NCBI GenBank assembly: GCA_050953835.1
Contig: JBMNNH010000018.1
Location: forward strand, 3,030-67,029
DNA: 64,000 bases
Direction: 5' to 3'
Source of the DNA: Acetivibrionales bacterium
GTDB taxonomy: Bacteria > Bacillota > Clostridia > Acetivibrionales > JBMNNH01
The notes beneath the pieces are model-generated. The model was not told where the DNA came from and searched no databases. It saw only the letters and a program-made list of their open reading frames with translations. Position 1 is the first letter of the stretch. Every line of letters begins with the position of its first letter. Both the position numbers and the translations under genes were made by a program. Shown here one piece after another: positions 32,109 through 56,443 of the stretch.

Positions 32109-32147
32109 GTCCATTCCACCTTTATGCATCTCGTAATAATATAAGGC

Positions 32148-34363: not shown

Positions 34364-34412
34364 ATCCCCCTCCTTGAATAAGTCTTGTACAGCCTGCCCA
34401 TGCAACAGCCTT

Positions 34413-34799
34413 TCAAGGCACTTGTATAGTAGCCTGTCCTGGATTGACTATCTGAATTATTCCACCATACATACATGTAAGCTTAGAAGATGAGTTAAGG
34501 GCCGGCTGTCCGGCAATAAGAACAGTAGGCGACCCAGGAACCCATGGTGAAGCAATATTAGGAACACAAGGCATGGGAGTCAGAACCCCCAACGCAGCAG
34601 CAGTCGCTGACTGCACAGCAGGATTACCCATACTGGTACACATAGCAAAGGGCATAACATTCGCCATTGGTTTATTGTCCATAATATTGGCCAAAGGTAG
34701 TGAAGTAATTGTTTTATTTTGAGGTGTTACGTTAAGTACCGATGGTGCTGTCCCAAAAGAACACATGCACTGTGCACCACCACAAACTGCCAATGCCAT
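34413..34799 (-). CDS. PAAR-like spike-tip protein (DUF4280-like)
   Basis: CGGAQCMCSFGTAPSVLNV...NVMPFAMCTSMGNP...PMPCVPNIASPWVPGSPTVLIAGQPAL...LTCMYGGIIQIVNPGQ matches the DUF4280 cysteine pattern. Confidence 0.85.
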   Translation of the reverse strand: MALAVCGGAQCMCSFGTAPSVLNVTPQNKTITSLPLANIMDNKPMANVMPFAMCTSMGNPAVQSATAAALGVLTPMPCVPNIASPWVPGSPTVLIAGQPALNSSSKLTCMYGGIIQIVNPGQATIQVP

Positions 34800-34859: not shown

Positions 34860-35642
34860 TTAAAACTTAATAATGCCTGTATTATTATCAGTACCCAACT
34901 CCAGTGTGATGGATTCGGAATGTAGTACTTTGCCGGATACTCTTATTATTATCAAAGCCTCCCGGTCATCTTTATCAATGTCATGAATCCTTGCATGGAA
35001 TGCCCCATTACCGTCTATATATGCTTTAACTGCACTCTTTAACATCTCTCCTCTTTTATGAGTGTAAGAAAGCTGATGTTCAAAGGCATAAATATCATTA
35101 TCATAAGGCCCGCTTATTATTCTGCATAATTCACTATTCACATCATCCTTATCCTTAATTAAAAACATCCTTCCAGCTAAATCCTTTTTTCCTGTAGTAT
35201 AAAGCTTGACGCGTGTACTGCCTTTCTTTACAGATTCCTGTGCAATCTTTATTTTCTCCAGGTTTCTGCTGTATACCAGCAGTACATCTGTTTGATCAAA
35301 AGGCTTTTTCGATGAATCTAATTTACCATGGACTAGAACCAAATTACTCGAACCTGGATAAAGCATTCCTGGATTCAGGGTTACAGGTAAAACCGGATTT
35401 AACGGGTCAATGTCGGAAGTATTTACTGTAATTCTATCTGATTGGTAAACATCTGACACAATATCGAAATCATATGTATCATCTGGTAAATTACATACAA
35501 CGGTATAACCATCATTCTTATGTATAGTATCAACTGTAACACCGTTTACATATAACTTAACAAGGTTTTTGTTTACAGGCTTTCCTGTAATTGCATCCAT
35601 TATCCTAAATACTATTGATACTTTTTTCTTAATTGTGGTCAT
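34860..35642 (-). CDS. Carboxypeptidase-regulatory-like beta-sandwich protein (CIS-associated, function unknown)
   Basis: The N-terminal VSIVFRIMDAITGKPV...YTVVCNLPDDTYDFDIVSDVYQS resembles the CarboxypepD_reg fold. ATGA overlap (35639-35642) with the cap gene. Confidence 0.45.
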   Translation of the reverse strand: MTTIKKKVSIVFRIMDAITGKPVNKNLVKLYVNGVTVDTIHKNDGYTVVCNLPDDTYDFDIVSDVYQSDRITVNTSDIDPLNPVLPVTLNPGMLYPGSSNLVLVHGKLDSSKKPFDQTDVLLVYSRNLEKIKIAQESVKKGSTRVKLYTTGKKDLAGRMFLIKDKDDVNSELCRIISGPYDNDIYAFEHQLSYTHKRGEMLKSAVKAYIDGNGAFHARIHDIDKDDREALIIIRVSGKVLHSESITLELGTDNNTGIIKF

Positions 35643-36226
35643 GTTCTCTCTCCTTCATAAACATCCAGTGAAAAATCAGCCTCTGTGACTCTCTTAACTT
35701 CTCGAGTTTTTCTGGAATTCAACAGCACAGGTTCTACAATATATCCAACTGAAAGCTTATATGGTATATTCGGAAAGGCCCATATCCGCTGAAGCTCTTC
35801 ATAAGTAAGTTTATTGAAGGTAATTTGTATTCCTTCCCCGCTATCACGCAGTGTGCCCTCTAGATTTTCCGGTGTAATGACTGCATTGTCATGCAATATC
35901 TGTATTGCACGTCCTAATATCATGCTTTCATCTGCATTTCTAGAATATACTCCTGTTTTTGAATGTGATGTAAGTAAGTAATACAATTTTAGAGATAAGG
36001 GTGGGTATCTGAGTCTGTTCACATTCTCATTTATCATTGAGTTCTGACGATAATCACCGTTCTCTTCAATATGATATAGATAAAGTGTAAGCTGAAAATC
36101 CCCTGGATCATTTGGAGAGCACAAGCCGATCATCTCTGGTTTGTCAATAGGCTCGGGTATCATATTCTTCTGCAGAAGCCTTATTAAAGAGGTACCAACG
36201 TCAGTTATTACTGTATATTCCCCCAT
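35639..36226 (-). CDS. Tail terminator/cap protein, Afp16/Pvc16-like (DUF4255-like)
   Basis: VGTSLIRLLQKNM...FQLTLYLYHIEENG...YPPLSLKLYYLLTSHS...ESMILGRAIQILHDN is the DUF4255 pattern. Confidence 0.85.
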   Translation of the reverse strand: MGEYTVITDVGTSLIRLLQKNMIPEPIDKPEMIGLCSPNDPGDFQLTLYLYHIEENGDYRQNSMINENVNRLRYPPLSLKLYYLLTSHSKTGVYSRNADESMILGRAIQILHDNAVITPENLEGTLRDSGEGIQITFNKLTYEELQRIWAFPNIPYKLSVGYIVEPVLLNSRKTREVKRVTEADFSLDVYEGERT

Positions 36227-36227: not shown

Positions 36228-39101
36228 TTAATCCTCCCTATTATTAAAAATCAGTTTATTATATTTCGTGTAGTACTCATAACCGTATCCTGTTATATCT
36301 TCAAATAAGAAAGCCGGGATATATATATGTCCATTTATTCCAAGTATATCTTGCTCCACATCCTTTTTATTGCCGTTAATAAAGATTTCTCTGGTGTGAG
36401 GTATTATTTTTACTTCCATACCGTTATAATTTATAACAGCTTTTCTCTCAGTTCCTACCCATACTACACTGCCTCCCAATCCTGTAAAGGCATCCCTGAT
36501 AGGAATATACGGTGTGCCCTGTGCCATAATAATTGGGTTCAAAAACTTTATATTACTGTCTGTAAAAATAGCTTCCCCTGCTTTAAAAGTACTGTATTTA
36601 TAACTTTCTGTTATCATTTCAGCCTTTTGATTTAGGCTTTTAATTTCCTCCTCAGTATATATACTGCTTTCCTTTTGGACTAACTGAAGAAGATTTTGGT
36701 AAATAAATGATTCAAGTGTTTCTGTTTCTATATCAACGCCTTGATTCATTCCTTCAATAGCAAGCTTCATTCTGGAAAAATAATCACTCTTTTCAGCAAC
36801 AAGAAGTGCATCAGCAGCTGCTCTGAAGCTCCTGATCAATGCCTGTACACCTGCCTTGTCTGTGCTGCCCGTGCTTAAAAAGCTGTTCCTGTATATACTT
36901 TGCATGCCCCTGGCTTCATCTGCATTATTCAGGGCAGAATAGTGCTTTGAAACATAATCCTCCATTTTGCTGCTGCCAGGAGAATATTCAATCAATAATT
37001 GCAAAATGGAAGCATTTTGCCTTTCTTCCATGCTCATTTTCATACTTTCAGCCGCAAGAGACACACTGCCTATCTGTTTTAGGATTCCAGCAGCAGAATC
37101 ACTGTCGCCGTTCTCTGAAAAGGTTTTATACAAAGCTTGTAAAGCATCTGAGATTTTATCAATGACACCATCGCTGTTAACAAATGACTTGTATTCCTCG
37201 TCAAGGGAGTTATAAGTGTCAAGCAGGTCTTTAACTGAAAACTCCAACTTACCTATTATATCTGAACCCGGTGTGTTGATTTCATCGAGAACTCTATACG
37301 CTCGCTCCTTGAAATCATTTATAAGGTTTTTGTCTTTATCACTAAGCAGATCTAGAAGTCCGGATATCATAATGTCTTTTAAGCCTATTTCGTTTTCCAG
37401 TTCCTTTGCAAGGCTGCTGTTTCCTTCCATAACAGCCTTGTCAAGTGAATTCTGCAGCTGTCTTTTCTCAGCATCAAGTTTATTTAAATCGTCCAATATA
37501 TTATCATTGTTATTAGATAAATCTTCAAGCACCCTGCCTATTTGCTCCTTTAATGAAGAGGCATGAGCAATGTTTCCGGTCTCAACCGCACTCATATACT
37601 CTTCTTTAAGCGCAGCAAGTTGATTCTCCAAACCCGCTTTTGCTTTCGAGGAACTGGATAGTTGTTCATTCATGGATGCTTTTATGCTCTTAATTTCATT
37701 ATCCAACAAGTTAAGAAAATCACCAAGAACCTTTAATGCAGGCTGGTTGTTATTAATGTCCTCCTGGCTGCCTGCGTTCAAATCAACTATTATAGCTGCT
37801 ATGTACCCTTTAATTCTTTCAAGGGCAGAAATTTTGCTTTTATTGTCTTCAAGCCTTTTAATGGTTTCAGTCTTAATAAATTCTACATCTTTTACCCTGG
37901 ATTCAAGCTGTTTTGAATTGTCTTCAATAATCTTATCCAATACAGCTTTGGATTCACCCGCAGCTTTTGCAGCCTTAAACTCACTATTATTGCTTACAAA
38001 CGCTGTACTTTTTAACCTGTCAAGAGCTCTGTCCAGGACTCTGTTCAGAACTATCAGTTCTTCCCCACTGCTTTTGATAATACTATTTTTTATATTGTTA
38101 ATATGTAATATATCACTCAAAACAGCATCCGCACCAGAAAAGTCCTGAGTATCAATTTTCCCAAGCAAACTCTTTTGTAATATACCTTTCTCTTCGCCGA
38201 GGACATCTGTTGATTGTCCTGCAAGGCTATTGATAAGATTGTTCTGAGTATCTATTAGTGCTGCAGATGAATTTGACAGTGGTTCCAAAATATCTGTATG
38301 TGCTTTATTACTTGCTTTATCAATTGCTGATTTAACCCTATCTGCAATCAACTGTACAACAAATATTTTTTGCTCGGTCAGTATATTGTTTTCCAGCTCC
38401 AAGACTTCAGCTATGTAAAGTTCCCTTTTATCAGTATGTGTCCTGTTGATATAGTCCTTATAACTTTGAATTCGAGTAAGTATGCTCTCACTATCCGAAT
38501 ATCCCTTCTGACCTTTAACCGAGGCAAGAATCGGATCAATAATTCCAAGCTTCTCTCTTATTTCTTTCCTTTCAGAACTGTCACTGCTTTTATTCAGCTT
38601 CTTTTCCTGGGACTTTCTCTCATTTGTAATGCTTTCAAGTTCTTTTTCGAGAAATTTCATCCCTTCGGGTAGATTATTCTCTGGTTCGTTTATCTGGCGT
38701 GCATCCACAGCTTTACCGGTAGAAAGGTCAATTATTTCTCCCGGTTTCTTTGCCCAGTGGGTAAGAGGAATGGAATCAATTTCTAGATTTGATACTATTT
38801 TCCCTTTTTCTGTCAAGATCTCATCCACAGTACCTGTACCGGTAATATCAACCCACTCGCCTTTTGCAAATTCTGACTTGTAATAAACCTTTTTCTGTCC
38901 GCTGTTTTCTGCGCTTTTTTCTGCCAATGACACAGTTTCACTATCAAGGGCTGACAGATGTATAAGAAATGTGCCAATAACGAGTGTCTGATTGGGAACG
39001 TCCTTTGCCAAAGGCCTTGTATCAGCACATGCTACACCAAATGGAAGAAGTGCTGTAATAACAAATATAATAAGCATCACAAAAGCATTTACTCTCTTCA
39101 T
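36228..39101 (-). CDS. Secreted 957-aa coiled-coil protein with C-terminal copper-amine-oxidase-N-terminal-like domain
   Basis: Sec signal MKRVNAFVMLIIFVITALLPFGVACA, about 750 aa of heptad-rich sequence, then C-terminal GTPYIPIRDAFTGLGGSVVWVGTERKAVINYNG...INGHIYIPAFLFEDITG. Its stop is 1 nt from the cap gene start. Confidence 0.7.
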   Translation of the reverse strand: MKRVNAFVMLIIFVITALLPFGVACADTRPLAKDVPNQTLVIGTFLIHLSALDSETVSLAEKSAENSGQKKVYYKSEFAKGEWVDITGTGTVDEILTEKGKIVSNLEIDSIPLTHWAKKPGEIIDLSTGKAVDARQINEPENNLPEGMKFLEKELESITNERKSQEKKLNKSSDSSERKEIREKLGIIDPILASVKGQKGYSDSESILTRIQSYKDYINRTHTDKRELYIAEVLELENNILTEQKIFVVQLIADRVKSAIDKASNKAHTDILEPLSNSSAALIDTQNNLINSLAGQSTDVLGEEKGILQKSLLGKIDTQDFSGADAVLSDILHINNIKNSIIKSSGEELIVLNRVLDRALDRLKSTAFVSNNSEFKAAKAAGESKAVLDKIIEDNSKQLESRVKDVEFIKTETIKRLEDNKSKISALERIKGYIAAIIVDLNAGSQEDINNNQPALKVLGDFLNLLDNEIKSIKASMNEQLSSSSKAKAGLENQLAALKEEYMSAVETGNIAHASSLKEQIGRVLEDLSNNNDNILDDLNKLDAEKRQLQNSLDKAVMEGNSSLAKELENEIGLKDIMISGLLDLLSDKDKNLINDFKERAYRVLDEINTPGSDIIGKLEFSVKDLLDTYNSLDEEYKSFVNSDGVIDKISDALQALYKTFSENGDSDSAAGILKQIGSVSLAAESMKMSMEERQNASILQLLIEYSPGSSKMEDYVSKHYSALNNADEARGMQSIYRNSFLSTGSTDKAGVQALIRSFRAAADALLVAEKSDYFSRMKLAIEGMNQGVDIETETLESFIYQNLLQLVQKESSIYTEEEIKSLNQKAEMITESYKYSTFKAGEAIFTDSNIKFLNPIIMAQGTPYIPIRDAFTGLGGSVVWVGTERKAVINYNGMEVKIIPHTREIFINGNKKDVEQDILGINGHIYIPAFLFEDITGYGYEYYTKYNKLIFNNRED

Positions 39102-40496: not shown

Positions 40497-42545
40497 TCAG
40501 TTTCCGATAACAATATCAAGTGTCCCGCTTCCATCCTGTGCATCCTTCAGATATGCCTCGGCTACCTTCTCTTCCTGTTTGTACAGTAACACCTTTAATT
40601 GGCTGTAGTCATTAATAACCACGTCAAGATGTTCAACCCTTTGGTTCACAGGCAATATTTCACTGATACTCTCATTTTTCCATAGCACCTGGTAGTGGGT
40701 TGCGCCAAGAGCGGTGTCTACATGTATATACAGGCTTGATTTATATGTACCTGCTATCTTTTCCGCTTTCCATGAGCCGGTAAATTTATTGGTTTCTGAA
40801 GGTTTATGGACAAGCAAAGTGCCTCCTGTTTCAAACCCGTCAAGCTCAGCTTCACCAACAATCTGCCCGTCTTTATAAAGCTTGACACGCAAAAGCGCGG
40901 AATCATTAAACATAACAGGAAGATGTACAATTTCCTTGTTAATTTCAGTTCTTTCTCCAACCCTTGAACCATCGTAGGTATATAGTTCATAGTGCGTTGC
41001 TTCTACACCAACAGGTAGTTTTTTTATACCAAATGCGACCTTATAGTCATCAAGCCTTATATTGGTATACCATTCTCCGGGCAGTCCATCTTCTTCTGTT
41101 TCTGTTTCGGGGAGCTGGTTTTGAATAAATGATTCCCCGTTTTCAAGCGCCTGTATTGTTATACTGTATTGTCCAATGTATTTTTCCAAAGCTCCCGACG
41201 ATTCATATGAAAGAATATAAATCTGTTGGTTCAAAGAAATAAGGTTGGAAATCACGCTATCCATAGCACTTCTTAAGGATGCCTTCATACTGTCGAGTTC
41301 CTCAAAAGTAATCAGTCCTAACTTGTTCTGAATAACTGCATCCTTATACTCTTGAAGCAATTCTTCCGATTTGGCCTTTGATTCTTCAAAAGCTATCTTG
41401 GCAGATACCAGGTTCAGATACAAGTTTTCTACGTTTTCTAACTGTTGTGTAGTAACATTTTCAACATTAATCTGCTCTTTTTCTTTTTCAGCTACAGAAA
41501 GAGGAAGGGCAAACTTTTCATTATCAAAATAGCGTATTCCGTCAAATTCCCTCTGGAACCACTCCTTCGGGATAGGTATAACAAAGAATATAAACGGTAT
41601 ATAATAATAACCACCATACTTATCCTCAATACTGTCAAGCATTCTCTCATACTTTGTCATAAGGTTGTCGAAATCAACCCTGCCTGAAGTCCTTAAGGCT
41701 TGTTCAACTGGAGATGCCATTGAGCCGAATTTCTTTTTAACATCCATCAATATGGTTTCGGTTTTAAGAGTTGCTAGGGCGAGTTTCCTTTTTGCCTGGT
41801 AAATATCAATGTCATCCTTTAAGGTATTATCAAGGATTTCTTTTAAGATACCCCTGTCTATATTTATGTTAATCAGCTTTTCTTCAAAAACATAGCCCGT
41901 ACTGACATCCATTCCTATTAGCTTTCCAAGGCTGTTTTTCTCCTTCTCATAGGCCATTACGGTTTGCTGGAGGTTCTTCGTAAATTCCTTAACTTCATTC
42001 TCTTTTGCTTTAAATGCTTCCTTTGTGGCCTGTCCAGTCCTAAACTTCCTTTCAAGCATTTCAAGGGCTTTCTCTGATTCTTCAAGTTTTATTGCTGCAT
42101 TGCGTTCATTAATGCCTTCTGTTATGACAGCAAGATACTGCAGCCTTATATCCATATTTAATTTTCTTCTTGCTTCAACAATCTGCCTGTCAATATCAAT
42201 TATTTTTGCTGTAAGTTCAGGAATCTTAAAGACAGTTTGAATCTCCTTGGGCTGGCCATGTGTCTCAGGCAGCTTTATATTAAACGGAAGTGAAAACCTG
42301 ACCGTACTTTCTTTCTTTCTGAGATCTCTTAGTGCTTCCCTAGCTTGATAAAGTTCAATACGTGTTTTAAACTTTTCCATTTCAAGCTCATATATTTCAT
42401 TACTGTTGCTAGTACCAATGCGCACCGCTTCTTCAAGGGTTAAAAGCTGTTCTCCTGCAGCAGCAGAATAGGTACTAGTACCGAAAAAAACCGCCAACGC
42501 AGTAAGGAAAGAAAACAGCCTGATAATATTACTCTCTCTTCTCAT
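40497..42545 (-). CDS. TolC/OEP-like secreted coiled-coil protein with two C-terminal beta-sandwich repeats
   Basis: Signal peptide, then LTLEEAVRIGTSNSNEIYELEMEK... (an OEP-like opening) and long helical repeats. The last 192 aa are two roughly 95-aa repeats, each containing GATHY. Confidence 0.45.
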   Translation of the reverse strand: MRRESNIIRLFSFLTALAVFFGTSTYSAAAGEQLLTLEEAVRIGTSNSNEIYELEMEKFKTRIELYQAREALRDLRKKESTVRFSLPFNIKLPETHGQPKEIQTVFKIPELTAKIIDIDRQIVEARRKLNMDIRLQYLAVITEGINERNAAIKLEESEKALEMLERKFRTGQATKEAFKAKENEVKEFTKNLQQTVMAYEKEKNSLGKLIGMDVSTGYVFEEKLININIDRGILKEILDNTLKDDIDIYQAKRKLALATLKTETILMDVKKKFGSMASPVEQALRTSGRVDFDNLMTKYERMLDSIEDKYGGYYYIPFIFFVIPIPKEWFQREFDGIRYFDNEKFALPLSVAEKEKEQINVENVTTQQLENVENLYLNLVSAKIAFEESKAKSEELLQEYKDAVIQNKLGLITFEELDSMKASLRSAMDSVISNLISLNQQIYILSYESSGALEKYIGQYSITIQALENGESFIQNQLPETETEEDGLPGEWYTNIRLDDYKVAFGIKKLPVGVEATHYELYTYDGSRVGERTEINKEIVHLPVMFNDSALLRVKLYKDGQIVGEAELDGFETGGTLLVHKPSETNKFTGSWKAEKIAGTYKSSLYIHVDTALGATHYQVLWKNESISEILPVNQRVEHLDVVINDYSQLKVLLYKQEEKVAEAYLKDAQDGSGTLDIVIGN

Positions 42546-44080
42546 CAGCTCTGCACCTCTCCTATAGTTAATACTACAAACTCCTCACTATCTACCATAT
42601 AGTGAAATCTGTACTCATAGCCATCAATAATGTATAGCATATATTTCAGTAAATCCCCCTCAATTATTTCCGTATGACCTGACGCCTGTGCTGCGGATGC
42701 CAGTGCTTGTTCTGAAGAAATTATACCTTTGCCGGACGGCTCGCCCATTGCATCCTTCATATTACTGAGATTCAGATTCTTATTCTTTAATACTACCAAC
42801 CCGGGGTTTTCACTCTCCCATATGTATGCTTTCTGCACAACAGCAGGATTTTCCATGTCTGCGTAGTTTATTAAAAAGGCGCATCCTGTTTCTTCCAGTA
42901 CTAATAGAAAATCGTATTCAAACATAACAAACTCAGATTTCCCAGTGAAATATGTGACAATTTCTTTTGTTTCTTTTCCAATCATATCTGCAAAAGGTAT
43001 TTCGTCCTGGAAAAAAAAGCCTTGGTATATTGGCGTTTCAAACTGTGAAAACAACCTTCCTTCCCCGTGCTTCATACCTGAAAACATTTCACCTTCATAT
43101 ACTTTTATCCCGTTTTGATATATTTTCCCCATGCCATTTGGCAGTCCATCCTTAAAATCCCCCTCATACCAGCCGGAATTTTTCTCATAGTATAATTTCC
43201 CCTTGCCATTATAAGCATTGTTTTGAAATTCTCCTTCATATATGATGTTTCCGTAGGAATCATATAAAATGCCCTGTCCGTTATAGCTGCCGTTTACAAA
43301 TGAACCTGAATACTTTAATAGGCCATTTTCATGGTATTCCATCCCCTGTCCATTTTTCTCACCTGCAGAGAATATACCTTTGAAAGACACACTGCCCTTT
43401 TCATTGTACATAATACCATTACCGTCAAATTGTGAGGCGGTAAAGCCTCCTTTATATAGTATGGCGTTGCTATCCGGATAAAAATAAGTGCCTGTTCCCT
43501 CCATCATGCCTCCGGAAAAATCCCCCTCATATACTTTTCTTCCTTTTTCATCGTACAGTTTCCCATATCCTTCATATAAATCATTCTGAAAATAGCCTTC
43601 ATAAATTAAGGTGCCTGTTTCAGCATATACTTTTCCATATCCAGTCTTAAGGCCGTTTTCCAGTTTGCCCTCATAAACCACACTGTCATTTTCTCTTTCA
43701 AGTAAATTTACCTTTCCATTGTAAGTGGCAATTCTCTCGTTATCCTGATAAAACACCGCAGTAAAGTATTTGCTTATTAACCACGGTCGTACGTACATAA
43801 AGAAAAGGAATATCAAAACAATTATAGCCACAGGTATAATAATAAAAAGTGACTTTGCCACGTATTTATGTCTGAACTCTATATAATCATTTATATTATC
43901 AGGCTTTACCTTCACTTTTTTCTGGATACTGCCTTTGGTTTTCATTACCAGTTTTCTTGCTTTTGAGCGAACGTTCAGGTTTTTCCTGATAGTTCTCGTT
44001 AATCTCCTAATGGGCAAAAGCAAAGCACTTTTAACCAGCCTGCCTATATACACTATAAAATTAAACAATCTCATTATCAT
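42545..44080 (-). CDS. Membrane-anchored MORN-repeat protein
   Basis: Basic N-terminus, one TM, then about 10 tandem YEG-x-(F/W)-x-x-G-x-x-x-G-x-G repeats (for example YEGYFQNDLYEGYGKLY). 1-nt stop/start overlap with the TolC-like gene. Confidence 0.8.
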   Translation of the reverse strand: MIMRLFNFIVYIGRLVKSALLLPIRRLTRTIRKNLNVRSKARKLVMKTKGSIQKKVKVKPDNINDYIEFRHKYVAKSLFIIIPVAIIVLIFLFFMYVRPWLISKYFTAVFYQDNERIATYNGKVNLLERENDSVVYEGKLENGLKTGYGKVYAETGTLIYEGYFQNDLYEGYGKLYDEKGRKVYEGDFSGGMMEGTGTYFYPDSNAILYKGGFTASQFDGNGIMYNEKGSVSFKGIFSAGEKNGQGMEYHENGLLKYSGSFVNGSYNGQGILYDSYGNIIYEGEFQNNAYNGKGKLYYEKNSGWYEGDFKDGLPNGMGKIYQNGIKVYEGEMFSGMKHGEGRLFSQFETPIYQGFFFQDEIPFADMIGKETKEIVTYFTGKSEFVMFEYDFLLVLEETGCAFLINYADMENPAVVQKAYIWESENPGLVVLKNKNLNLSNMKDAMGEPSGKGIISSEQALASAAQASGHTEIIEGDLLKYMLYIIDGYEYRFHYMVDSEEFVVLTIGEVQS

Positions 44081-44125
44081 ATAACAATCACTCCATGCTG
44101 GAAATAGACAAATCCAGAATTAATA

Positions 44126-46894
44126 CTATAACGTGTAATACTTGTTTCCTTTATCCTTGTCGTGATAGTACATATCGGAAAGATAAAGGTATTTTTTTGA
44201 CACTCCATCTTCAGGCAGTACTCTCAACACTTCAATAAACGATGCTCTGGCCTTGAAATAGTCACCTTGTTGGAAATACATGACCCCATTATTAAAGCTG
44301 TCCAATGTTTGCTCCTTCCGTTCTCTGATTGAAAACTCATCCCCCTCAAAGCAATCATAAATTTCTATTTCTGCTCCGCTGTCCTTAACAGTTCCAATAT
44401 ATCTCATTTTAAAAACAGAAGGAGGAAGATTCTTAATAATATCTCCGGTTGATAATGTTGAAACATTGGATTGATTTCCATATTCCTCAAGGCGCGCTGA
44501 TGTGTGTAAACATTGTGAAACAGCCGCACTGGAAAGCCGCACCCCATCACCTATGACACCAAGCATAACCCTCCCAAAATGGAGTGTTACGCCAACATTA
44601 ACTTTGGGCAACCCATCGCTCATTCTTTCTATATTCCACGCTGACAGCTTTTCTTGTATCCTTAAGGCAGCATTTATTGAATTCTCTGGGGAGTCAGGGA
44701 AAACAGCAGTAAAACCCGTATCCATAAATCTGTCAATAATCCCGTTAAACCCTTGAACAACAGGTGAAAACCTTTCGAACACCCCATTAATGAATTTAAA
44801 TATTTCTTCAGATTCCATTCCTGATGTAAGCTCGAAAAAAGACCTTACCTTGAAGTTCATAACCGCCATATCTTCTTTTAGATGATCGCCTTTTTTAACA
44901 CTTTCTATGCTTTTAACACCAAGCATATTTATAAATCTTTCTGGAATAAAGCGATAGTATGATTTGTTTAAAAGCGCAAGCTTTCTGGTATAGTTTTGAA
45001 TGAAACTTGCCATATCATTAAACCTGTTTGATAGGTGTTCAATTTCATCACCCGACTTTACATTGACCCTGACATCAAAATGCCCTGCTGAAATCTGCTC
45101 AACACCCTTGTTCAACTTTCTGATAGAAATGAGTGAGGATATTATAGTGCTTAAGATGATTATAAGCATCAAGGCAGCAATAAGCAAAACAACATACGAA
45201 AAAGTCTTTTTAAGTGTGTTATAACGCAGTTCATAATCTTCCATTGACAAACCTGTTTCCATAACAACAAAATCCTGGCTGCCTATAGATAGCGGAGTTG
45301 TCATATACATCCAACTTCCGTAACTGTAGGAATCTATCCCAAAGCCAACCGTTTTATCTTTAAAAGTATTGTTGATGATGCTTTCCCTTTCACTATCAAG
45401 CAGTGTATAATCCAAAGGATAAGAAACCGGTATGTTATCAGATGAAAAGACAAAAACGGTCGAATCATTTTTTCTCTTATAAATATTAAAATACATATCC
45501 TTTGCATAATTGCTAAAACCCTCTAATTCTTTAAGCCCATTTGAATTAACTATGCTTCTTAAATGCTCATAAGGCTCGCTGACAGTGTCCGAAGGGGTAT
45601 CAAAAGAATTGACATCCTGTTTTAAGATTTCATTTGCAAAAATGTAACTTGTATCAGCCAAATGTGACCTATACTCGTCATAGAGCACATTCCTGACAAG
45701 ATTGTCTGAGAATATGGTTGTCATGAACATCATGATAATTAGGACTGCTGATAACAAACCCAGACATTGCTTTAATATAATTGAAATACGCATTTTCATT
45801 ACCTTGCAATAGAAATCCCAGATAAGAAGAGTAACCAGCAGGACTATAGCCGCAATCTCAAAAATTATTATTAACGGCTTGCTGCCGGACTTTTCATGTA
45901 GGTTCTTAATAAGTGAAACATATGAAAAGCCGCCGTTGGCAAGCATATATTCCTCTCCGTTGTTGACCACAGCTGCAAATCTGCCTTCCGGGCTGGCAGT
46001 AATCTTTTTCATGTCAGAAAGGGTAATGCCATATTCGTTGTTTAAGCTCATATTATTGTCAATAATCAATTGGGGACCTTTATCCATGACAGCCTTTAAA
46101 TATTTATCAGAATAGGCATCATAGAAAAATACTCCGCCATCACCTGAATAGCATAAGTCAACCGCAATTGATTGTTCTTCTTGTATGGGGTAAAGCTTTT
46201 CAATCTTTCCGGACACATCCCCTTTATAGAGGCAGCCTTCAATGTCGGTAAATACAATGTTCCCGGCAGGAAGCACTGTTGTTTCCCTTATAGACTGGAA
46301 GCTTCCCAGGTCATATTCATATATCATCGTAACTTGGGATTCATAGGATAAAGGCATTCTGAATACCAATGCCTTTTTACCAAAAACCCAGCCTCCGAAT
46401 ATTCTTTCCTGATCCTCCGAAAGACCTGAAAAAATAAAGCTTCCCTTCTGCTCAACGGGCCCTATTTTTTTCCTCAAAACAAGCCTATTGCTGTACCAGG
46501 CATTATCAAGCTTTGTTATTGCAGCGTAAAATTCCCCTGTATCTTTTGGTACGAATTCGCAATACATAATAAAAAGGTTTTCGTCATTATCAATATAGAG
46601 GTCATGTATCTCAGTATCAAATTCTGGTTTGGATGGATTTACTTTTGTCCTTTTAAGTACCTCTCCATACTTATCTACCTTAATTATTTCCTCATCCTGT
46701 CCATTATCAACCGCCAAATACATTGTACCCTTATCATCAGTTTTCAAAACCTTTATATCTCTAAAATCCGTTATATTGCCCTCCTGTAAAGAAACGAACT
46801 GTTTTTGGATGAAAGGCCATGCAAGAATGCCTAACACTACCAAAATAGAGAAAAAACTGACTATCTTCTTCATACATTTACCCCAATATAACAT
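44126..46894 (-). CDS. Multi-TM receptor: two extracytoplasmic domains, HAMP, class-III cyclase-homology domain (apparently degenerate)
   Basis: HAMP signature SAGHFDVRVNVKSGDEIEHLSNRFNDMA. The CHD region is MAVMNFKVRSF...FMDTGFTAVF...HFGRVMLGVIG...CLHTSARLEE. Alternative start ATG at 46873 (MKKIVSFF). Confidence 0.65.
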   Translation of the reverse strand: MLYWGKCMKKIVSFFSILVVLGILAWPFIQKQFVSLQEGNITDFRDIKVLKTDDKGTMYLAVDNGQDEEIIKVDKYGEVLKRTKVNPSKPEFDTEIHDLYIDNDENLFIMYCEFVPKDTGEFYAAITKLDNAWYSNRLVLRKKIGPVEQKGSFIFSGLSEDQERIFGGWVFGKKALVFRMPLSYESQVTMIYEYDLGSFQSIRETTVLPAGNIVFTDIEGCLYKGDVSGKIEKLYPIQEEQSIAVDLCYSGDGGVFFYDAYSDKYLKAVMDKGPQLIIDNNMSLNNEYGITLSDMKKITASPEGRFAAVVNNGEEYMLANGGFSYVSLIKNLHEKSGSKPLIIIFEIAAIVLLVTLLIWDFYCKVMKMRISIILKQCLGLLSAVLIIMMFMTTIFSDNLVRNVLYDEYRSHLADTSYIFANEILKQDVNSFDTPSDTVSEPYEHLRSIVNSNGLKELEGFSNYAKDMYFNIYKRKNDSTVFVFSSDNIPVSYPLDYTLLDSERESIINNTFKDKTVGFGIDSYSYGSWMYMTTPLSIGSQDFVVMETGLSMEDYELRYNTLKKTFSYVVLLIAALMLIIILSTIISSLISIRKLNKGVEQISAGHFDVRVNVKSGDEIEHLSNRFNDMASFIQNYTRKLALLNKSYYRFIPERFINMLGVKSIESVKKGDHLKEDMAVMNFKVRSFFELTSGMESEEIFKFINGVFERFSPVVQGFNGIIDRFMDTGFTAVFPDSPENSINAALRIQEKLSAWNIERMSDGLPKVNVGVTLHFGRVMLGVIGDGVRLSSAAVSQCLHTSARLEEYGNQSNVSTLSTGDIIKNLPPSVFKMRYIGTVKDSGAEIEIYDCFEGDEFSIRERKEQTLDSFNNGVMYFQQGDYFKARASFIEVLRVLPEDGVSKKYLYLSDMYYHDKDKGNKYYTL

Positions 46895-47059: not shown

Positions 47060-48211
47060 ATGGATAAGAAAATTATTGGTAATAAGTACCAGGTGCTAAG
47101 AGTGCTTTTTGATAATGAGAATTACTATGCTGCAATATGCCGTGATATTTCAACACCTGATGAAAAGCATAGTGTCATATTGAATGTATACCGAAGCAAA
47201 CCATCAATTTTGAAGGCTGCCCCTGTTTTTACGAAAGTTAACAGCGATATATGCCATGACTTTAAGGAATTCTTTGTTGAATCTCCGTATGTAATTTCAG
47301 TTTTTAAACATTATGATTATACTTCCCTTGAATGTTTTTTATCAGAGAATGACATTTCTCTCACCGAACGCCTTGCACTTTGCTCTTCATTCCTGCTTGA
47401 AGCAATACGTAATGATAATATACCACTGTTGTTAAAGTTGGATATCCTGCAAGCTAAGCATATAGTAGTTGACAGCGAAAGGAAAATTCATATTAATTTT
47501 TTTGCAAAGCTGGATAATAATGATGAACCGGAAATAATCGAAAAAAAAGTGATAAAAAACATATCTTCTATTATAGAATTAATACTTGGTAACAGGAAGA
47601 AACTACCTGAGGAGCTTTTGAATTTTCTTTCGGAACTTGAATCAGATAAATACAACATGATAAGCAGCATATTCTCTGAGTTTAATACTGTTTCTGAAGC
47701 TATTATAGCTAAGACAGAGGATAGCAGCGACCAAAATCTACAGAAGAGAGCCCGGACTGCACTGGGAAAGGCAGTTAAAAAACAAGTAAAAAAGCCAGCT
47801 GCAATAATTGTTTTAAGGGTTGTAGTTATTGTTCTTTTAGCAGGTATTATAATAGCGGGTGGTTATTATGCATACAAACATATCTTCACAGGCAAACCCG
47901 TGGCATCTTTTTCTGAAGAAATCAGTGAAACCAATGTTATTGATAATGCAATGCAGGTCAAGCTCTCGCCTAAGACTCCTGCAGTAAGCGAATCTGTGCC
48001 TGAACCTAGCCCTGTGACAGTAGAGCCTGAGAAAAACAATGAAGTTGTGCATATAGTAAAAATTGATGATAACCTTTTTGATATAGCGGAAGCATATTAT
48101 GGAAATGGTGATCTATATACATTGATTAAAGAAAGAAATAAACTTGAATCAAATATTATTTACGTAGGCATGGAATTGATCATACCTGCCTACAACCAAA
48201 TGGAACAGTAA
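47060..48211 (+). CDS. Bitopic protein: degenerate protein-kinase-like N-domain, TM, C-terminal LysM domain
   Basis: The N-terminus has a kinase-like layout, but the VAIK Lys, HRD and DFG equivalents read VILNV, LDILQAKHIVV and NFF. TM segment AAIIVLRVVVIVLLAGIIIAGGYYAY. LysM is HIVKIDDNLFDIAEAYYGNGDLYTLIKERNKLESNIIYVGMELIIP. Confidence 0.5.
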   Translation: MDKKIIGNKYQVLRVLFDNENYYAAICRDISTPDEKHSVILNVYRSKPSILKAAPVFTKVNSDICHDFKEFFVESPYVISVFKHYDYTSLECFLSENDISLTERLALCSSFLLEAIRNDNIPLLLKLDILQAKHIVVDSERKIHINFFAKLDNNDEPEIIEKKVIKNISSIIELILGNRKKLPEELLNFLSELESDKYNMISSIFSEFNTVSEAIIAKTEDSSDQNLQKRARTALGKAVKKQVKKPAAIIVLRVVVIVLLAGIIIAGGYYAYKHIFTGKPVASFSEEISETNVIDNAMQVKLSPKTPAVSESVPEPSPVTVEPEKNNEVVHIVKIDDNLFDIAEAYYGNGDLYTLIKERNKLESNIIYVGMELIIPAYNQMEQ

Positions 48212-48216
48212 AATTA

Positions 48217-48245
48217 GCGGGCCCGTGGGCCCGCCATTTTTCTTT
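48217..48245. terminator. GC-rich hairpin terminator between convergent genes
   Basis: GCGGGCCCGTGGGCCCGC (48217-48234) followed by CATTTTTCTTTATT. An A/T-rich tract on the other side allows bidirectional function. Confidence 0.75.
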
Positions 48246-48253: not shown

Positions 48254-50059
48254 TTATTCATTTACAACTACATATGCACTTACGCTCACTTCCGGATTCT
48301 CTTCTGAACGTGCGATAATCTCATATGTACCCCTTACGCTTGCTGCCTTATATATTCCGTTTTCGTCAATGCTGCCGCCATCTTCGTCCTTGAGAATCCA
48401 TTTTACTTTTTTATTGGCAGTTCCCTGTACAAATGCTTTAAACCTTATTTCTTCTCTTGGTTTAACCGATACCACATCGGGTTCAACTCTAAGTGTTATT
48501 TCTTTTTTGTCCGGATATTCCTCCGAATCCTTTTGAGGTTTAAATGCGAACCACCTTAAGGATATTGAAGTAATGTCCTCACCGTCTAAAAACTTCAAGC
48601 CGATTTTAAAAGTACCTTTTTCAGGATAAACGATAACTGCAGCATCAACTTTGTGAAGGGGTGTTCCAATATCACTTTTTTTAAACACATCCCCGTTGCC
48701 AAACAGCATTGCACCATTCTCCTTGTGAACAATACAGACATTTACGCAGACATTTCCCAAGCCAAGTTCATGTGATATCTCTTCAGACACATACCTGCCA
48801 TTTAATTTTGCTCCTGCTCCAAGGTTTATTTCTACCGTACCCGTTGAAGTTGCATAATCATATGCCTGTGCAGCAGGTATTCCTACATTGAAATCAAAGC
48901 TGTTAGTCTCTGCATTGTATTTTACATCGGCTTCCGGCTTTTCCCAAGCATTCAGGCGTTTTGTAACTATATTCGTATCAAAGCGGATATCACCTCCAGA
49001 CATCAGATTAGCCAACCCGCCCGAATTGCCTAACTGACTTGATGGAAGGTACTGTTTAAAGGGCACCTGAATAATATTCCGTATAATGTACGTTGTATTT
49101 GTGGACATCAAATCTATCCTGGCCAGGCATATCCCCAATTCTTCACCCGTACATGAAGCCTCCAGCGTCCTGGAATAATAATCCCTTTTTATTATTTTCC
49201 CAGGGTCATCTTCTGATATTTCGATCAATGCCTTTAGGGACAGCTCCTTGTTTTCATGTTCTGCTCCTATATATACATCAAAATTCACACTACTGCTGAA
49301 TAGTGCAGCCTTTATTCCATTAACCTGCTCTGCCTTTATAATATACTTAGCTTCATATTCAGCTTTCTGCTCATCAGGGTTTTCTGTAAAACTAAATACA
49401 AGTTCACTGCTTCCCTCTTTTGTCCTGAAATACTCGGAAACTGAAGAAAACTCAAACTTTACCGGTTCCATATCCTGGTGCTTTAAAACAATAAATGATA
49501 TTCTTGCTTCCTGTCCCGACCTCACCGCTACTGGAGTTTTTAATAGAATGGTTAAACCTTTCCTGTCATAAAGGAGTCTATAAGTAAAACATGGGTCGGC
49601 GTTAAGTATATCTTCCAGAGATGGTTCTTCAGATTTTAGGTATAAATTATATGTCTCTTCAATCCTGTTAAACTGACTGCCGCCTTCTTCATTATCGCCG
49701 GTAACAGTATTAACAGGCTCCTTCAGGTTTTCTTCATACTCTATATAGAGGTAGCAGTGGTTGCTCCCCTCAAGAGAATCAAAGCCATCAATCGTAGACA
49801 GTTTTCGCGTAATTGGAGCCGGTAGAACTATTTCCCTTCCAAGGTAATCAACTGCCATGCCCGACTCTACTGAAACTGTATTGTCGTCCGTTGCTACTAC
49901 TCCCATACCGCATACTATTCCCGCACCATGCAACAGTCTGTTCACGAATCTTCTCTTGTCGTTAAAGTACTTTTGTTCTGTTTCAAAGTCCCTTACAGTC
50001 AGAAGTTTTCCATAGAAAAACCTGTTTCTTTCAAAAGGATAATAACTTCTATTTTTCAT
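48254..50059 (-). CDS. CIS distal protein, candidate tail fibre/receptor-binding protein with C-terminal Big_2-like Ig domain
   Basis: Last gene of the core operon. The N-terminus is YYPFERNRFFYGKLLTVRDFETEQKYFNDKRRFVNRLLHGAGIVCGMGV. The C-terminus is VSVKPREEIRFKAFVQGTANKKVKWILKDEDGGSIDENGIYKAASVRGTYEIIA (Big_2-like). Confidence 0.45.
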   Translation of the reverse strand: MKNRSYYPFERNRFFYGKLLTVRDFETEQKYFNDKRRFVNRLLHGAGIVCGMGVVATDDNTVSVESGMAVDYLGREIVLPAPITRKLSTIDGFDSLEGSNHCYLYIEYEENLKEPVNTVTGDNEEGGSQFNRIEETYNLYLKSEEPSLEDILNADPCFTYRLLYDRKGLTILLKTPVAVRSGQEARISFIVLKHQDMEPVKFEFSSVSEYFRTKEGSSELVFSFTENPDEQKAEYEAKYIIKAEQVNGIKAALFSSSVNFDVYIGAEHENKELSLKALIEISEDDPGKIIKRDYYSRTLEASCTGEELGICLARIDLMSTNTTYIIRNIIQVPFKQYLPSSQLGNSGGLANLMSGGDIRFDTNIVTKRLNAWEKPEADVKYNAETNSFDFNVGIPAAQAYDYATSTGTVEINLGAGAKLNGRYVSEEISHELGLGNVCVNVCIVHKENGAMLFGNGDVFKKSDIGTPLHKVDAAVIVYPEKGTFKIGLKFLDGEDITSISLRWFAFKPQKDSEEYPDKKEITLRVEPDVVSVKPREEIRFKAFVQGTANKKVKWILKDEDGGSIDENGIYKAASVRGTYEIIARSEENPEVSVSAYVVVNE

Positions 50060-51246: not shown

Positions 51247-51267
51247 CTCTATTCAAATATGTTGTGT

Positions 51268-53421: not shown

Positions 53422-53425
53422 CCGT

Positions 53426-56400: not shown

Positions 56401-56443
56401 AAATGTCTTCAATGGTACGTTTATCAATTTTCGGTACGTACAT
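53426..56443 (-). CDS. Large baseplate wedge protein (baseplate J/gp6-like, Afp11-like)
   Basis: YYTPEWRFNLESPDPGTALFIIFAEMFQETIDRFNKTP N-terminal signature. About 1005 aa. ATG at 56443 lies 5 nt after GGAGG. Confidence 0.7.
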   Translation of the reverse strand: MYVPKIDKRTIEDIYKQLSSMLPYYTPEWRFNLESPDPGTALFIIFAEMFQETIDRFNKTPLKNYLAYLNMLDIDMKPVVPSIGYVCFNTSSGAVNKVFIPSGTKLFSDSEYTDSDRIIFETTQNFFVTPAKIKAIYNVDPVKDRIVNCYSQDGLGSEYPCNITLFDTEKGTNLQEHAFYLSENSVLSIKSPAVISVKLENRKNPHIVDRYLEKLSDPELVEWCYHTNDGWKPFEKIEKDKDLIVLFKSNNDILTSHQHDEGDIYISCRAKNILRLKEILADHIFIASSSDQKVQKGIQPDLIYSDDIPVENENGYCFGAQFSMYNCMYVKSDEVFIKKGAHVSIELDLGFIEKDFQSEIPQIDLYKNYKLIMDKNKFAKPEKLNITIQRILMEYWNGIGWVRIETESKIDNVFNGKTGIKHITFKCPDDISPVLVNSIDGYWIRFRIVDIENNFYVNGVYLSPWLKNMVLNYGYKGIFPAANKIININNSSEGNPIDVSKGVEQPVKMFSPLDDKKSTVYLCFDKKPYGIPINIYFQVLSQSESSVKELVWYAMSKYRGMKEWVEIRVDDKTCGFAKSGIVSIESGTDMIPAEYFGVEGYWFKIERNEFQQELLPMIDSIHMNAVKIVQKESHKDERHMLYANDLTSSVTLTYSPVIEEEVWVNEVGHINDDQINSLLQGNPSKISIVRDDEERVAEVWVLWDGVENFYDSGSNDRHYMIDRSKGIIYFGDGNKGKKVPEQEEENILVNYSSGGGSIGNLPEGSINNLLSPIAYIDSVSNIKPTCGGCDRQELNDVALLGPAVLRHRGRAVTLLDYQKLVKSNFIDARKVKCIPNVNNSGEVDYGCVTVVVMCDSYWDYHYNIDLCSEIRSFLLDRAFCISASNDKIFVVPPQLLELNVDCELVIEDMEAAASVEEALAGIVSQYLDPLRGADGKGWDIGEIPKPAHFYSTIKKIPGIKYIGRINLDASFIKNGIRKYIALDKPVYMPFAVPVNGMHKFRLRTD

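Follow-up and report, generated by a model that had tools for sequence, protein, structure and literature searches.

A putative cell-envelope module with a TolC-like protein, a membrane MORN protein and a secreted stalk protein encoded beside Afp/PVC-type CIS genes of Bacillota

In an Acetivibrionales genome, the receptor, MORN and TolC-like genes beside those of a phage-tail-like contractile injection system (CIS) appear to belong to a cell-envelope module dedicated to a Bacillota CIS lineage of the Afp/PVC type. The stretch of DNA analysed here (the window) is 64,000 nucleotides long, and the three proteins are named A (receptor), B (MORN protein) and C (TolC-like protein). Analysis of related loci reveals that the evolutionarily invariant unit is composed of B, C and a secreted protein named Cu, often together with the gene of a Cis13-like protein of 601 aa, rather than of A, B and C as the original prediction had it. 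A and a LysM membrane protein are dispensable members. We infer that B, C and Cu form a trans-envelope docking and trigger complex for the CIS in monoderm bacteria, and we assign this reading a probability of about 0.45.

The module bears on the question of how a CIS is deployed from a thick-walled bacterium that has no outer membrane, and hints at how single-membrane Firmicutes might dock or fire injection machines through such a wall. In Streptomyces, the sole studied monoderm case, the CIS fires inside the cell and relies on one adaptor, CisA. A different, multi-protein envelope module accompanies the CIS in over a hundred Bacillota species, and cultured carriers are available (Clostridium sp. 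ASF356, Extibacter muris, Dorea sp. D27, Fusibacter, Heliorestis and Wukongibacter). Our search of a literature library turned up no account of this module, which is apparently undescribed. NCBIfam, PHROGs and PADLOC yielded a curated family for none of the four proteins, and these unnamed families can serve in annotation as marks of this Bacillota CIS lineage.

Gene content and conservation of the locus

All three genes of the trio are located on the minus strand, A at 44126..46894, B at 42545..44080 and C at 40497..42545. A gap of 45 nt separates A from B, and the ORFs of B and C overlap by 1 nt, just as described originally. The gene of Cu (957 aa) is located at 36228..39101 on the same strand. 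It is followed, again on the minus strand, by genes for the CIS cap (Pvc16_N, 35639..36226), for a conserved CIS-associated protein of 260 aa (34860..35642) and for a PAAR-like spike-tip protein of 128 aa (34413..34799). The last of these is the PAAR-like gene of the locus, as its product matches DUF4280 (E=4e-37); the 260-aa ORF has no PAAR match. On the other side of the trio, the 601-aa Cis13-like protein, of the baseplate-periphery/fibre kind, is encoded at 48254..50059 (minus strand); it has an Ig-like end and neither an export signal nor a TM segment. Baseplate and hub genes extend from 50068 to 59459 on the minus strand (Tail_P2_I, two Baseplate_J paralogues, gp25, Phage_base_V spike, YQBQ-like hub and CIS_tube), and an Afp15-like AAA+ ATPase with WHD and AAA parts is encoded at 25711..27906 on the plus strand. 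The window therefore holds the gene set of an Afp/PVC-type locus, namely cap, tube, hub, spike, gp25, Baseplate_J, Tail_P2_I, PAAR-like protein and AAA+ ATPase, and a tape-measure-sized ORF in addition. The sheath gene lies outside the window and is present in related loci.

Between A and the 601-aa gene, the plus strand encodes a LysM membrane protein of 383 aa (47060..48211), which has a cytoplasmic N-domain with no match to a Pfam family, a TM segment at residues 247-265 and an extracellular LysM part. It is present in about one third of related loci, on either strand. A GC-rich, bidirectional terminator-like hairpin (48215..48236) separates it from the 601-aa gene. The hairpin and the divergent LysM gene agree with the claim that the trio heads its operon in the window. 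However, this arrangement is not general, since in other loci the module comes after genes of the baseplate or spike that share its strand.

The census is based on an HMM scan of 91 loci and of 80 GTDB species-representative loci, in which A was scored where at least 5 kb of upstream sequence was available and CIS genes where at least 6 kb was available on both sides. B is located upstream of C in all 70 species-representative loci with enough flank, and Cu downstream of C in 73 of 73. In contrast, of the 61 related loci with the required flank, 46 contain A and 15 lack it, so that B and C stand as members of the predicted unit while the third place belongs to Cu. The 601-aa gene is found just upstream of the module in most loci. 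Core CIS markers, strictly defined, are present in 50 of the 53 species-representative loci with sufficient flanks, and the remaining three contain the Cis13-like gene with no core CIS gene. This strongly supports the predicted tie of the trio to the CIS, and a trio widespread without CIS genes and never beside them, which would have spoken against it, is not what we find; in three loci the module is more than 10 kb away from any recognisable core CIS gene. A reverse census from the cap protein, using a five-sequence alignment, returned only 12 metagenome contigs, mostly short, and four context look-ups gave mixed outcomes limited by flank length.

The 80 loci belong to Clostridia lineages (Lachnospiraceae, Oscillospiraceae, Fusibacter, Heliorestis and others) and one further locus to Paenibacillaceae, an 'E. 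coli' label on one locus being a binning artefact. The order receptor, MORN protein, C and Cu_amine_oxidN1 protein is kept in seven of seven loci whose C is 27-57% identical to that of the window, and Pvc16_N and other CIS genes are present in the six of them that have enough flank. The placement of B-C-Cu varies: the block may come behind the baseplate genes, behind the spike gene or ahead of the tube genes, and CIS genes remain beside it in at least three distinct gene orders. B is divergently encoded in the single Paenibacillaceae locus examined. C and Cu are naturally fused in at least 17 representative clusters, a single one of which was looked up and belongs to a Paenibacillaceae genome. 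That the genes are chance neighbours with no functional tie to the CIS is hardly conceivable, as the linkage is kept across Clostridia families and the Paenibacillaceae locus despite sequence identities of 23-57% and repeated changes of gene order.

Other neighbours raise the idea that the module, together with alanine racemase (Alr), GNAT/LPG-synthase-like and MFS proteins, shields the producer from its own CIS or that of its kin by remodelling the envelope. In the window, as in the Paenibacillaceae locus, the CIS genes are followed by a block of Alr, GNAT, MFS and ABC_sub_bind genes. LPG_synthase_C and an MFS protein of about 990 aa flank the module in two loci (L009 and L011), LPG_synthase_C is also present in a third (L058), and some of these MFS proteins of other loci share the ectodomains of A, with which they are paralogous. 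However, remodelling genes are found within 10 kb in a minority of loci (MFS in 10-18 of 91) while B-C-Cu is universal, and nothing enzymatic is present in B, C or Cu. We regard such a protective role as very unlikely.

Architecture of the module proteins

C is a secreted protein of 682 aa with a hydrophobic signal segment at its N-terminus. Its resemblance to TolC, noted originally, is weak at the level of sequence: the Pfam OEP family (PF02321) scores 17.2 bits against a cut-off of 22 and NCBIfam NodT (TIGR01845) 20.1 bits against a cut-off of 210, although one homologue (P0007) carries a precomputed PF02321 match and one orthologue has been named 'TolC family protein' by PGAP. With the AlphaFold2 model of C (pLDDT 75.8), the top 44 Foldseek matches are all TolC, OprM, CmeC or CusC chains (E=1e-7 to 2e-4, probability 1.0), with target-normalised TM-scores of 0.45-0.62. 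C is thus modelled with a TolC fold, comprising an alpha-barrel and a beta-hairpin part with internal duplication, and it shares with this family the overall fold, the duplication and helices of 63-70 residues. About half of the family-invariant residues of C are located in two segments (~74-109 and ~316-339) which match the beta-barrel hairpins of TolC and have low pLDDT in the monomer model. These hairpin segments are the most conserved part of the C family, in contrast to variable surface loops. Unlike the TolC/OMF proteins, C falls below the family sequence cut-offs, adds a pair of Ig/Fn3-like domains in its last ~200 residues and is fused to a stalk protein in some clusters. Another difference is in the hosts, as the Clostridia and Paenibacillaceae lineages are monoderm and have no outer membrane. 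The locus thereby provides a context for TolC-fold proteins in monoderms.

Cu begins with a signal peptide and a conserved N-domain, continues as a long helical/coiled-coil region and ends in a Cu_amine_oxidN1 domain (the 'stalk'); its N-region has no Pfam match. One C::Cu fusion was modelled (pLDDT 80.7), and in this model the TolC-like part is followed by an Ig domain, the Cu N-domain, a helical bundle and the stalk domain. For the Paenibacillaceae fusion, TolC-family channels are likewise the top Foldseek matches. N-terminal export segments are present in 78 of 78 homologues of C and in 76 of 79 homologues of Cu, whereas in the comparison set they were found in none of 57 caps and none of 48 homologues of the 260-aa protein. 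Together with the predicted orientation of B described below, this supports the envelope location originally proposed across the families.

The fold of C could also point to an independent TolC-based export or efflux system, with B as adaptor, C as duct and an MFS protein as pump, which would only be co-regulated with the CIS and might export, for example, a signal or toxin. A membrane-anchored B with an extracytoplasmic part does recall periplasmic adaptor proteins, and MFS transporters are located nearby in some loci. However, no HlyD, MFP, RND or ABC pump component was found among the module neighbours in the window and related loci, and the block has neither a conserved adaptor of the HlyD/MFP type nor a conserved pump of the ABC or RND type. 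In the loci surveyed, the C family was seen only adjoining B and Cu and never away from CIS-related genes, and its fusion to a fibrous stalk protein would be unexpected for a duct. We see very little room for a separate exporter.

B is a bitopic protein of 511 aa with an N-terminal tail, a single TM segment (residues 77-95), about ten MORN repeats and a C-terminal domain of ~150 aa predicted to lie outside the membrane, the profile of which gave no match in the PDB. The single pass and the repeats are as originally described: Pfam MORN (PF02493) scores 66.8 bits against a cut-off of 22.5, and nine full and one or two partial repeats can be read between residues ~112 and 358, of which a loose repeat pattern caught seven. 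The N-tail is basic (21 K/R against 3 D/E), and a juxtamembrane motif, KPxxxxDY...SK(R/K), is conserved on the predicted cytoplasmic side. One TM segment is present in 75 of 77 homologues, and the side upstream of it is the more positive one in 66 of 77. By the positive-inside rule, B is predicted to be oriented N-in/C-out in most homologues with its MORN array outside the membrane, which gives extracellular MORN arrays a context as well.

A is a receptor of 922 aa with four hydrophobic segments (residues 11-29, 341-359, 377-395 and 568-586). Gene callers place its start at M8 on identical metagenome contigs, which gives 915 aa. The segments delimit two ectodomains predicted to be extracytoplasmic (~30-340 and ~396-567) and are followed by a cytoplasmic C-terminal part, beginning just after the last segment with a HAMP domain (residues 591-629; Pfam, 36.2 bits against a cut-off of 25), in keeping with the layout first proposed. 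The description of ectodomain 1 as beta-propeller-like is modestly supported by repeat-type profile matches to the PQQ propeller 3hxj (7e-6) and the PknD sensor 1rwi (4e-5), while ectodomain 2 gave no profile match in the PDB. Promoter-like sites upstream of A show no excess (9 against 7.7 expected by chance). The MFS protein of the window was considered as a paralogue of A and rejected (BLASTP E>1).

The cyclase-homology domain of A (~670-840) was part of the original prediction, and it is present in a degenerate form. On the single sequence, Guanylate_cyc remains sub-threshold (16.5 bits against a cut-off of 21.9), but Pfam detects it in 10 of 17 family members, and the profile of these 17 matches solved class III cyclases, among them bPAC, CyaB and CyaC, at E=1e-15 to 1e-14. 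The catalytic positions considered were those of the two metal-binding Asp, the substrate Lys and the transition-state Asn and Arg. Across 59 family sequences, the substrate Lys is found in none, the first metal Asp in one and the second in seven; A of the window bears K682, T726, R722 and H797 at catalytic positions. Judged by these residues, the domain is real but catalytically dead across the family, that is, a pseudo-cyclase, and A cannot signal through cAMP or cGMP because the catalytic residues are absent family-wide. A thus resembles class III adenylate/guanylate cyclases with HAMP in its TM-HAMP-cyclase architecture and differs from them in lacking both metal-binding Asp and the substrate Lys and in having two ectodomains and four TM segments. 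It would represent a case of a cyclase domain retained as a non-catalytic signalling part. The best-conserved stretch of the cytoplasmic C-terminal region is a TPR-like motif at its end. Membership of a defence system was also considered and rejected, the sole match in the NCBIfam, PHROGs and PADLOC scans being a weak one to PycC (4e-6) that reflects the cyclase fold.

Possible roles of the module at the envelope

The closest parallel to B is CisA of the Streptomyces coelicolor CIS. It has been reported that CisA is bitopic and N-in, with one TM segment, a flexible cytoplasmic N-terminus and an extracytoplasmic C-terminal domain, and that it is encoded in the CIS cluster, absent from the purified particle, required for firing and proposed to act as a membrane recruiter (PMC12237407). 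B has the same predicted topology and is likewise encoded in a CIS cluster of a monoderm, and it has a conserved cytoplasmic motif in addition. The likeness is one of predicted topology. The cytoplasmic part of CisA is ~285 aa long and its C-terminal domain is substrate-binding-protein-like, whereas B has a tail of ~75 aa and about ten MORN repeats. Moreover, CisA acts alone while B is always accompanied by a TolC-fold protein and a stalk protein.

In the docking and trigger complex that we favour, B would lie N-in/C-out in the membrane and its cytoplasmic tail would recruit the baseplate of a cytoplasmic CIS, like CisA, perhaps via the Cis13-like 601-aa protein encoded alongside. The extracellular MORN rod and C-terminal domain of B might hold a TolC-like oligomer of C, which would be extended by the coiled-coil/stalk protein Cu. 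Together the three proteins would cross the peptidoglycan and give the monoderm wall a fixed site for docking, exit or triggering. A, where present, and the LysM membrane protein might sense a wall or surface cue, which A might relay inward by conformational change and protein contact via its dead cyclase dimer and TPR-like end, with no cyclic nucleotide involved. C cannot simply be a conduit, because the lumen of a TolC trimer (~2-3.5 nm) is far too narrow for the CIS tube. To our knowledge, a monoderm also has no obvious membrane for a beta-barrel to enter, and these hosts lack BAM.

Two other membrane-attached systems are comparable. TssJ-TssL-TssM of the T6SS is likewise made of several proteins, spans the envelope and is encoded together with a contractile machine, and the T6SS baseplate docks onto it via TssK. 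None of the TssJ, TssL and TssM families was found among the Pfam matches of the window proteins scanned. The hosts considered here differ in having no outer membrane, and their Afp/PVC-like CIS comprises a cap, a tape-measure-sized ORF and an Afp15-type ATPase. The eBAP3 class of fibres, which occurs in systems of Bacillota and Actinobacteriota, has been reported to resemble the T6SS baseplate protein TssK, and the eBAP3/Tail_P2_I baseplate type of Bacillota to be TssK/TssG-like (PMC12923769). The second system is the thylakoid tCIS of Anabaena, which is anchored by an extension of Cis12 and a TM helix of Cis13 (PMC8894136). In this system, fibre-position and baseplate proteins keep a machine of the eCIS type on a membrane, and the N-terminus of the 601-aa protein has a weak profile match to the tCIS protein All3314 (7b5h_AA, E=0.024). 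However, the tCIS anchors are built into Cis12 and Cis13, while here the 601-aa protein lacks a TM segment and separate proteins make up the parts in the membrane and wall.

A wider proposal, which we consider doubtful, is that a contractile secretion apparatus of a type-VI-like kind, anchored to the cell, exists in monoderm Firmicutes, gut Lachnospiraceae and Oscillospiraceae among them. A junctophilin-like MORN spacer, a repurposed TolC-fold barrel operating in the absence of an outer membrane and a coiled-coil stalk would make up its envelope complex, with a pseudo-cyclase receptor as the gate. If true, such an apparatus would represent a trans-wall machine of a new class and would give TolC-fold proteins their first assigned role in single-membrane bacteria.

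It is also conceivable, but in our view unlikely, that the CIS is truly extracellular and that the module opens or weakens the membrane and wall of the producer for exit of the particle. C would then be a pore-former that enters the producer membrane from outside, its position in the wall would be set by B, Cu and the LysM protein, and the timing of release would fall to A. The tape-measure-sized ORF, the Pvc16_N cap, the Afp15-like AAA+ ATPase and the fibre-like 601-aa protein with its Ig-like end are as in released eCIS and fit an extracellular mode without an anchor. A Paenibacillus fibre of the eBAP3 type grafted onto PVC targeted cells, and this work argues for extracellular action in Bacillota (PMC12923769). 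In addition, a wall-binding LysM protein is interleaved in the locus, and the amphipathic hairpin segments of C are suited to insertion into a bilayer. However, scans of the module proteins revealed no catalytic domain of a hydrolase, holin or endolysin, and the LysM protein is optional. Moreover, the cytoplasmic motif of B and the fixed stoichiometry of B, C and Cu, with fusions, suggest a stable structure and not a lysis trigger.

An IS6 element between C and Cu

The genes of C and Cu are separated in the window by an IS6-family element of ~1.35 kb (39126/7-40475), located inside their 37-nt spacer. Its transposase is encoded at 39175-40272 on the plus strand (DDE_Tnp_IS240, Pfam E=3.9e-25), and the element has ends GGTTCTGTTAAC and an 8-9-bp target duplication ATGGTATTG. 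The original prediction took the trio to have been contiguous with the 957-aa, cap and PAAR genes before this insertion, and the interruption by the IS is confirmed. In two contigs whose B protein is 100% identical to that of the window (L002 and L003), the 957-aa gene follows C after 37 nt, and the IS site is empty in L002. The IS6 insertion is thus polymorphic in the population.

Organization of the locus in the window

An Afp/PVC-type contractile injection system (CIS) locus encloses the receptor gene A (44126–46894, 922 aa), the MORN gene B (42545–44080, 511 aa) and the TolC-like gene C (40497–42545, 682 aa) in the window. The coordinates of these genes in the original prediction, including the 45-nt A–B spacing and the 1-nt B/C overlap, were reproduced, with each of the three ORFs on the minus strand. 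That strand also carries, upstream of the trio, the genes for a gp19-like tube, CIS_tube, a YQBQ-like hub, a Phage_base_V spike, gp25, Tail_P2_I and a Cis13-like 601-aa protein (48254–50059), and a 996-aa ORF without any family match occupies the tape-measure position. Downstream of the trio are the genes for Cu (a 957-aa secreted coiled-coil protein with a C-terminal Cu_amine_oxidN1 domain), a Pvc16_N cap, a 260-aa protein and a PAAR-like DUF4280 protein (34413–34799). An Afp15-like AAA+ ATPase is encoded at 25711–27906, and the gene for a 383-aa LysM membrane protein (47060–48211) is divergent from the trio. One exact protein match assigns the window to an Acetivibrionales MAG (Clostridia).

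Two consecutive Baseplate_J paralogues (1017 aa, 53426–56479; 717 aa, 51268–53421) are present in the window, whereas many CIS carry just one gene of the Afp11 type. The 601-aa and LysM genes converge on a perfect GC-rich hairpin (48215–48236, GCGGGCCCGTGGGCCCGC), which has T-runs on either strand and resembles a bidirectional terminator dividing the CIS locus of this genome into two transcription units. Close to the YbjN and AAA+ genes is a 1288-aa ORF (19794–23660) for which Pfam, NCBIfam, PHROGs and PADLOC gave no match and the 91 related loci no homologue. In L014 and L024 the ATPase gene is followed by ORFs of 1269–1360 aa that are not homologous to it, and all of these may be variable cargo or effector genes.

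A 1.35 kb IS6-type element with a DDE_Tnp_IS240 transposase separates C from Cu (39126/7–40475; ends GGTTCTGTTAAC, duplicated ATGGTATTG). Its transposase is unusually long (365 aa), with N-terminal matches to the zinc ribbons Zn_ribbon_InsA and Zn_ribbon_IS1595. A B protein identical to that of the window is encoded on four metagenome contigs, and on L002 and L003 the 957-aa gene starts 37 nt past C. Since the element is missing from otherwise identical metagenome contigs, its insertion is recent and polymorphic, and the trio was contiguous with the 957-aa gene beforehand, as had been proposed. Contig L001 stops 51 nt past the C stop codon, which fits an assembly breaking at a repeat. The insertion is probably polar on the Cu, cap and DUF4280 genes of this genome.

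Distribution of the module and its linkage to CIS genes

The C family is compact, with 11 clusters found by word search and 172 clusters at E<=1e-30 in a profile search of 1.84 billion representatives. The order receptor–MORN–C–Cu is kept in all seven loci whose C is 27–57% identical to that of the window, and the cap and other CIS genes are present in six of these, namely those with enough flank. A scan of one genome per GTDB species yielded 112 relatives, and the 80 retained loci are labelled almost entirely as Clostridia lineages (Lachnospiraceae, Oscillospiraceae, Fusibacter, Acidaminobacter and Heliorestis among them), including Clostridium sp. ASF356, Extibacter muris and Dorea sp. D27.

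The HMM census of the retained loci places B upstream of C in 70/70 and Cu downstream of C in 73/73, whereas A is present in 46 of 61, so that A–B–C as the conserved unit is not borne out. The B-C-Cu block is found in three or more gene orders: it may follow the baseplate genes, come straight after the spike gene or precede the tube genes. These counts and arrangements indicate that selection acts on B-C-Cu together with its link to the CIS, with A as a frequent option. The linkage of the trio to the CIS holds, as strict CIS markers occur in 50 of the 53 loci that extend 6 kb or more in both directions, and the condition set to refute it, a trio common without a CIS and never with one, is not borne out; the three marker-less loci keep the Cis13-like 601-aa gene beside A-B-C-Cu. 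That these genes are chance neighbours with no relation to the CIS is extremely improbable.

Among caps, the closer relatives in L093, L097 and L099 have the module, and the Wukongibacter locus L105 contains both B and A. For several caps that are more distant (L095, L101, L102, L106 from a Bacilli MAG and the actinobacterial L107), no module lies within the available flank, in a reverse census that is thin, with few caps and limited flanks. In L106 (3782–5962), whose cap is 47% identical to that of the window, partner-switching genes (HATPase_c_2, STAS and GAF-SpoIIE) and a gene for an MFS-HEAT-cNMP_binding protein lie upstream of the CIS, the B-C-Cu block is absent within the flank, and these genes may represent a different regulatory or envelope solution. 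L040, nominally an E. coli locus, was rejected as a binning artefact (GC 0.56; megablast against 5,426 complete E. coli genomes gave no match). L032 is labelled Desulfovibrionaceae and has a GC of 0.50.

Features of the module proteins

Four hydrophobic segments divide A into two ectodomains and a cytoplasmic HAMP-containing part. The cyclase-homology domain named in the original prediction is present, as a 17-member profile of the C-terminal region matches solved class III cyclases (E=1e-15). However, the first metal-binding Asp is found in 1, the second in 7 and the substrate Lys in none of 59 family members, and on these residues the domain is a pseudo-cyclase and A a HAMP pseudo-cyclase. 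The best-conserved part of the cytoplasmic C-terminal region is a TPR-like motif at its extreme end. The predicted beta-propeller-like repeats of ectodomain 1 are modestly supported by repeat-type profile matches to beta-propellers, including the PknD sensor (E=7e-6 to 1e-3). Both ectodomains share just 8–23% identity across the family, which fits a fast-evolving ligand-binding surface. The A-receptor HMM also matches the first ~580 aa of ~990-aa MFS proteins (E=1e-36 to 1e-58; L009 1138–4110, L011 18898–21867, also L016, L018, L021, L039, L041, L044 and L046), so that one and the same double ectodomain is joined to a transporter in some proteins and to a HAMP pseudo-cyclase in others. It is absent from the MFS protein of the window (BLASTP E>1).

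B is, as predicted, a single-pass protein: a 76-aa N-tail with 21 K/R and 3 D/E is followed by one TM segment, about ten MORN repeats and a ~150-aa C-terminal domain with no detectable relative. Among 77 distinct homologues, a single TM lies near residue 72 in 75 and the N-side is more positive in 66; by hydropathy and the positive-inside rule, B is predicted to be N-in with the MORN array outside. A motif conserved family-wide, KPxxxxDYxxxGxxx(V/I)(S/A)K(R/K), abuts the TM on the N-side.

C carries a signal segment, and two Ig-like domains follow its TolC-like part. The first 44 Foldseek matches of its AlphaFold2 model are TolC-family outer-membrane channels only, in line with the helical region first noticed, and about half of the 45 invariant residues of the family fall in two segments corresponding to the TolC barrel hairpins. 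Although C shares the TolC fold, it fails the sequence cut-offs and the host-envelope and partner-gene criteria for outer-membrane factors, and should not be filed as one. To a role of the module as an independent exporter we give very little weight. C and Cu form a single polypeptide in at least 17 representative clusters; one such locus contains Baseplate_J, Tail_P2_I, a 601-like gene, B, DUF4280, the fusion and A. The confident model of this fusion (pLDDT 80.7) is again TolC-like, with an amine-oxidase stalk domain. C and Cu are a physically coupled TolC-fold/stalk pair.

Possible role at the cell envelope

N-terminal export segments occur in 78/78 C and 76/79 Cu homologues and are absent from caps (0/57) and homologues of the 260-aa protein (0/48) in the same screen, and C and Cu are therefore predicted to lie outside the membrane. 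The MORN array, A ectodomains and LysM domain are likewise predicted outside. The B tail, the HAMP-pseudocyclase-TPR part of A and the N-domain of the LysM protein are predicted to face the cytoplasm, the side where the CIS assembles. Together these genes encode a multi-protein envelope module dedicated to the CIS, in which B is the one conserved link across the membrane.

It is possible that B recruits the baseplate, as proposed for CisA, which would recruit the CIS in Streptomyces (PMC12237407), that B, C and Cu form a wall-spanning docking, exit or trigger structure, and that A gates this structure through protein contact. We assign a docking or trigger role a probability of roughly 0.45. 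Against it, the TolC lumen is too narrow for a CIS tube, the barrel of C has no outer membrane in this host, and the locus otherwise resembles a released eCIS. Of the other roles, egress machinery is unlikely, and self-protection or envelope remodelling still less probable.

For docking, the 601-aa protein may provide the contact. Its N-terminus belongs to NCBIfam CIS13 (E=2e-31), its family profile weakly matches the Anabaena tCIS baseplate-attached protein All3314 (7b5h, E=0.024), and its gene stays beside the envelope module where the CIS core is >10 kb off (L058, L070 and L074). In the T6SS, docking onto the membrane complex is the task of TssK. Fibres of the Tail_P2_I-dependent baseplate type resemble TssK according to a 2026 survey (PMC12923769). 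By this likeness, the 601-aa protein is, speculatively, the obvious candidate partner of the envelope module.

The closest analogues of the module are CisA, the T6SS TssJLM complex and the built-in anchors of the Anabaena tCIS (PMC8894136), none of which has the same components, and no description of this module was found in the searched literature. The 2021 eCIS survey reported eCIS-associated toxins from Ruminiclostridium cellulolyticum and Paenibacillus jilunlii and no Pfam domain characteristic of Gram-positive loci (PMC8213781).

In the window (27866–34405) and in the Paenibacillaceae CIS locus L104 (15970–23141), the CIS genes are followed by a block of alanine racemase, GNAT, large MFS, ABC_sub_bind and membrane-sensor genes. 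LPG_synthase_C (MprF catalytic domain) and ~990-aa MFS genes flank the module in L009 (221–4113) and L011 (17985–21870), and an LPG_synthase_C gene adjoins it in L058 (108–1088). These neighbours suggest that this CIS is accompanied by a system that modifies lipids or the wall.

The module is widespread and is present in cultured gut commensals, and with it the deployment of CIS by monoderm bacteria becomes open to direct tests. Carriers that are cultured or fully sequenced (L047, L060, L081, L033, L041, L044, L055 and L105) include Clostridium sp. ASF356 of the Altered Schaedler Flora, Extibacter muris DSM 28560, Dorea sp. D27, Heliorestis acidaminivorans, Fusibacter ferrireducens, Fusibacter sp. 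3D3, Lachnospiraceae bacterium CE91-St61 and Wukongibacter baidiensis; these carriers are candidates for experimental work.
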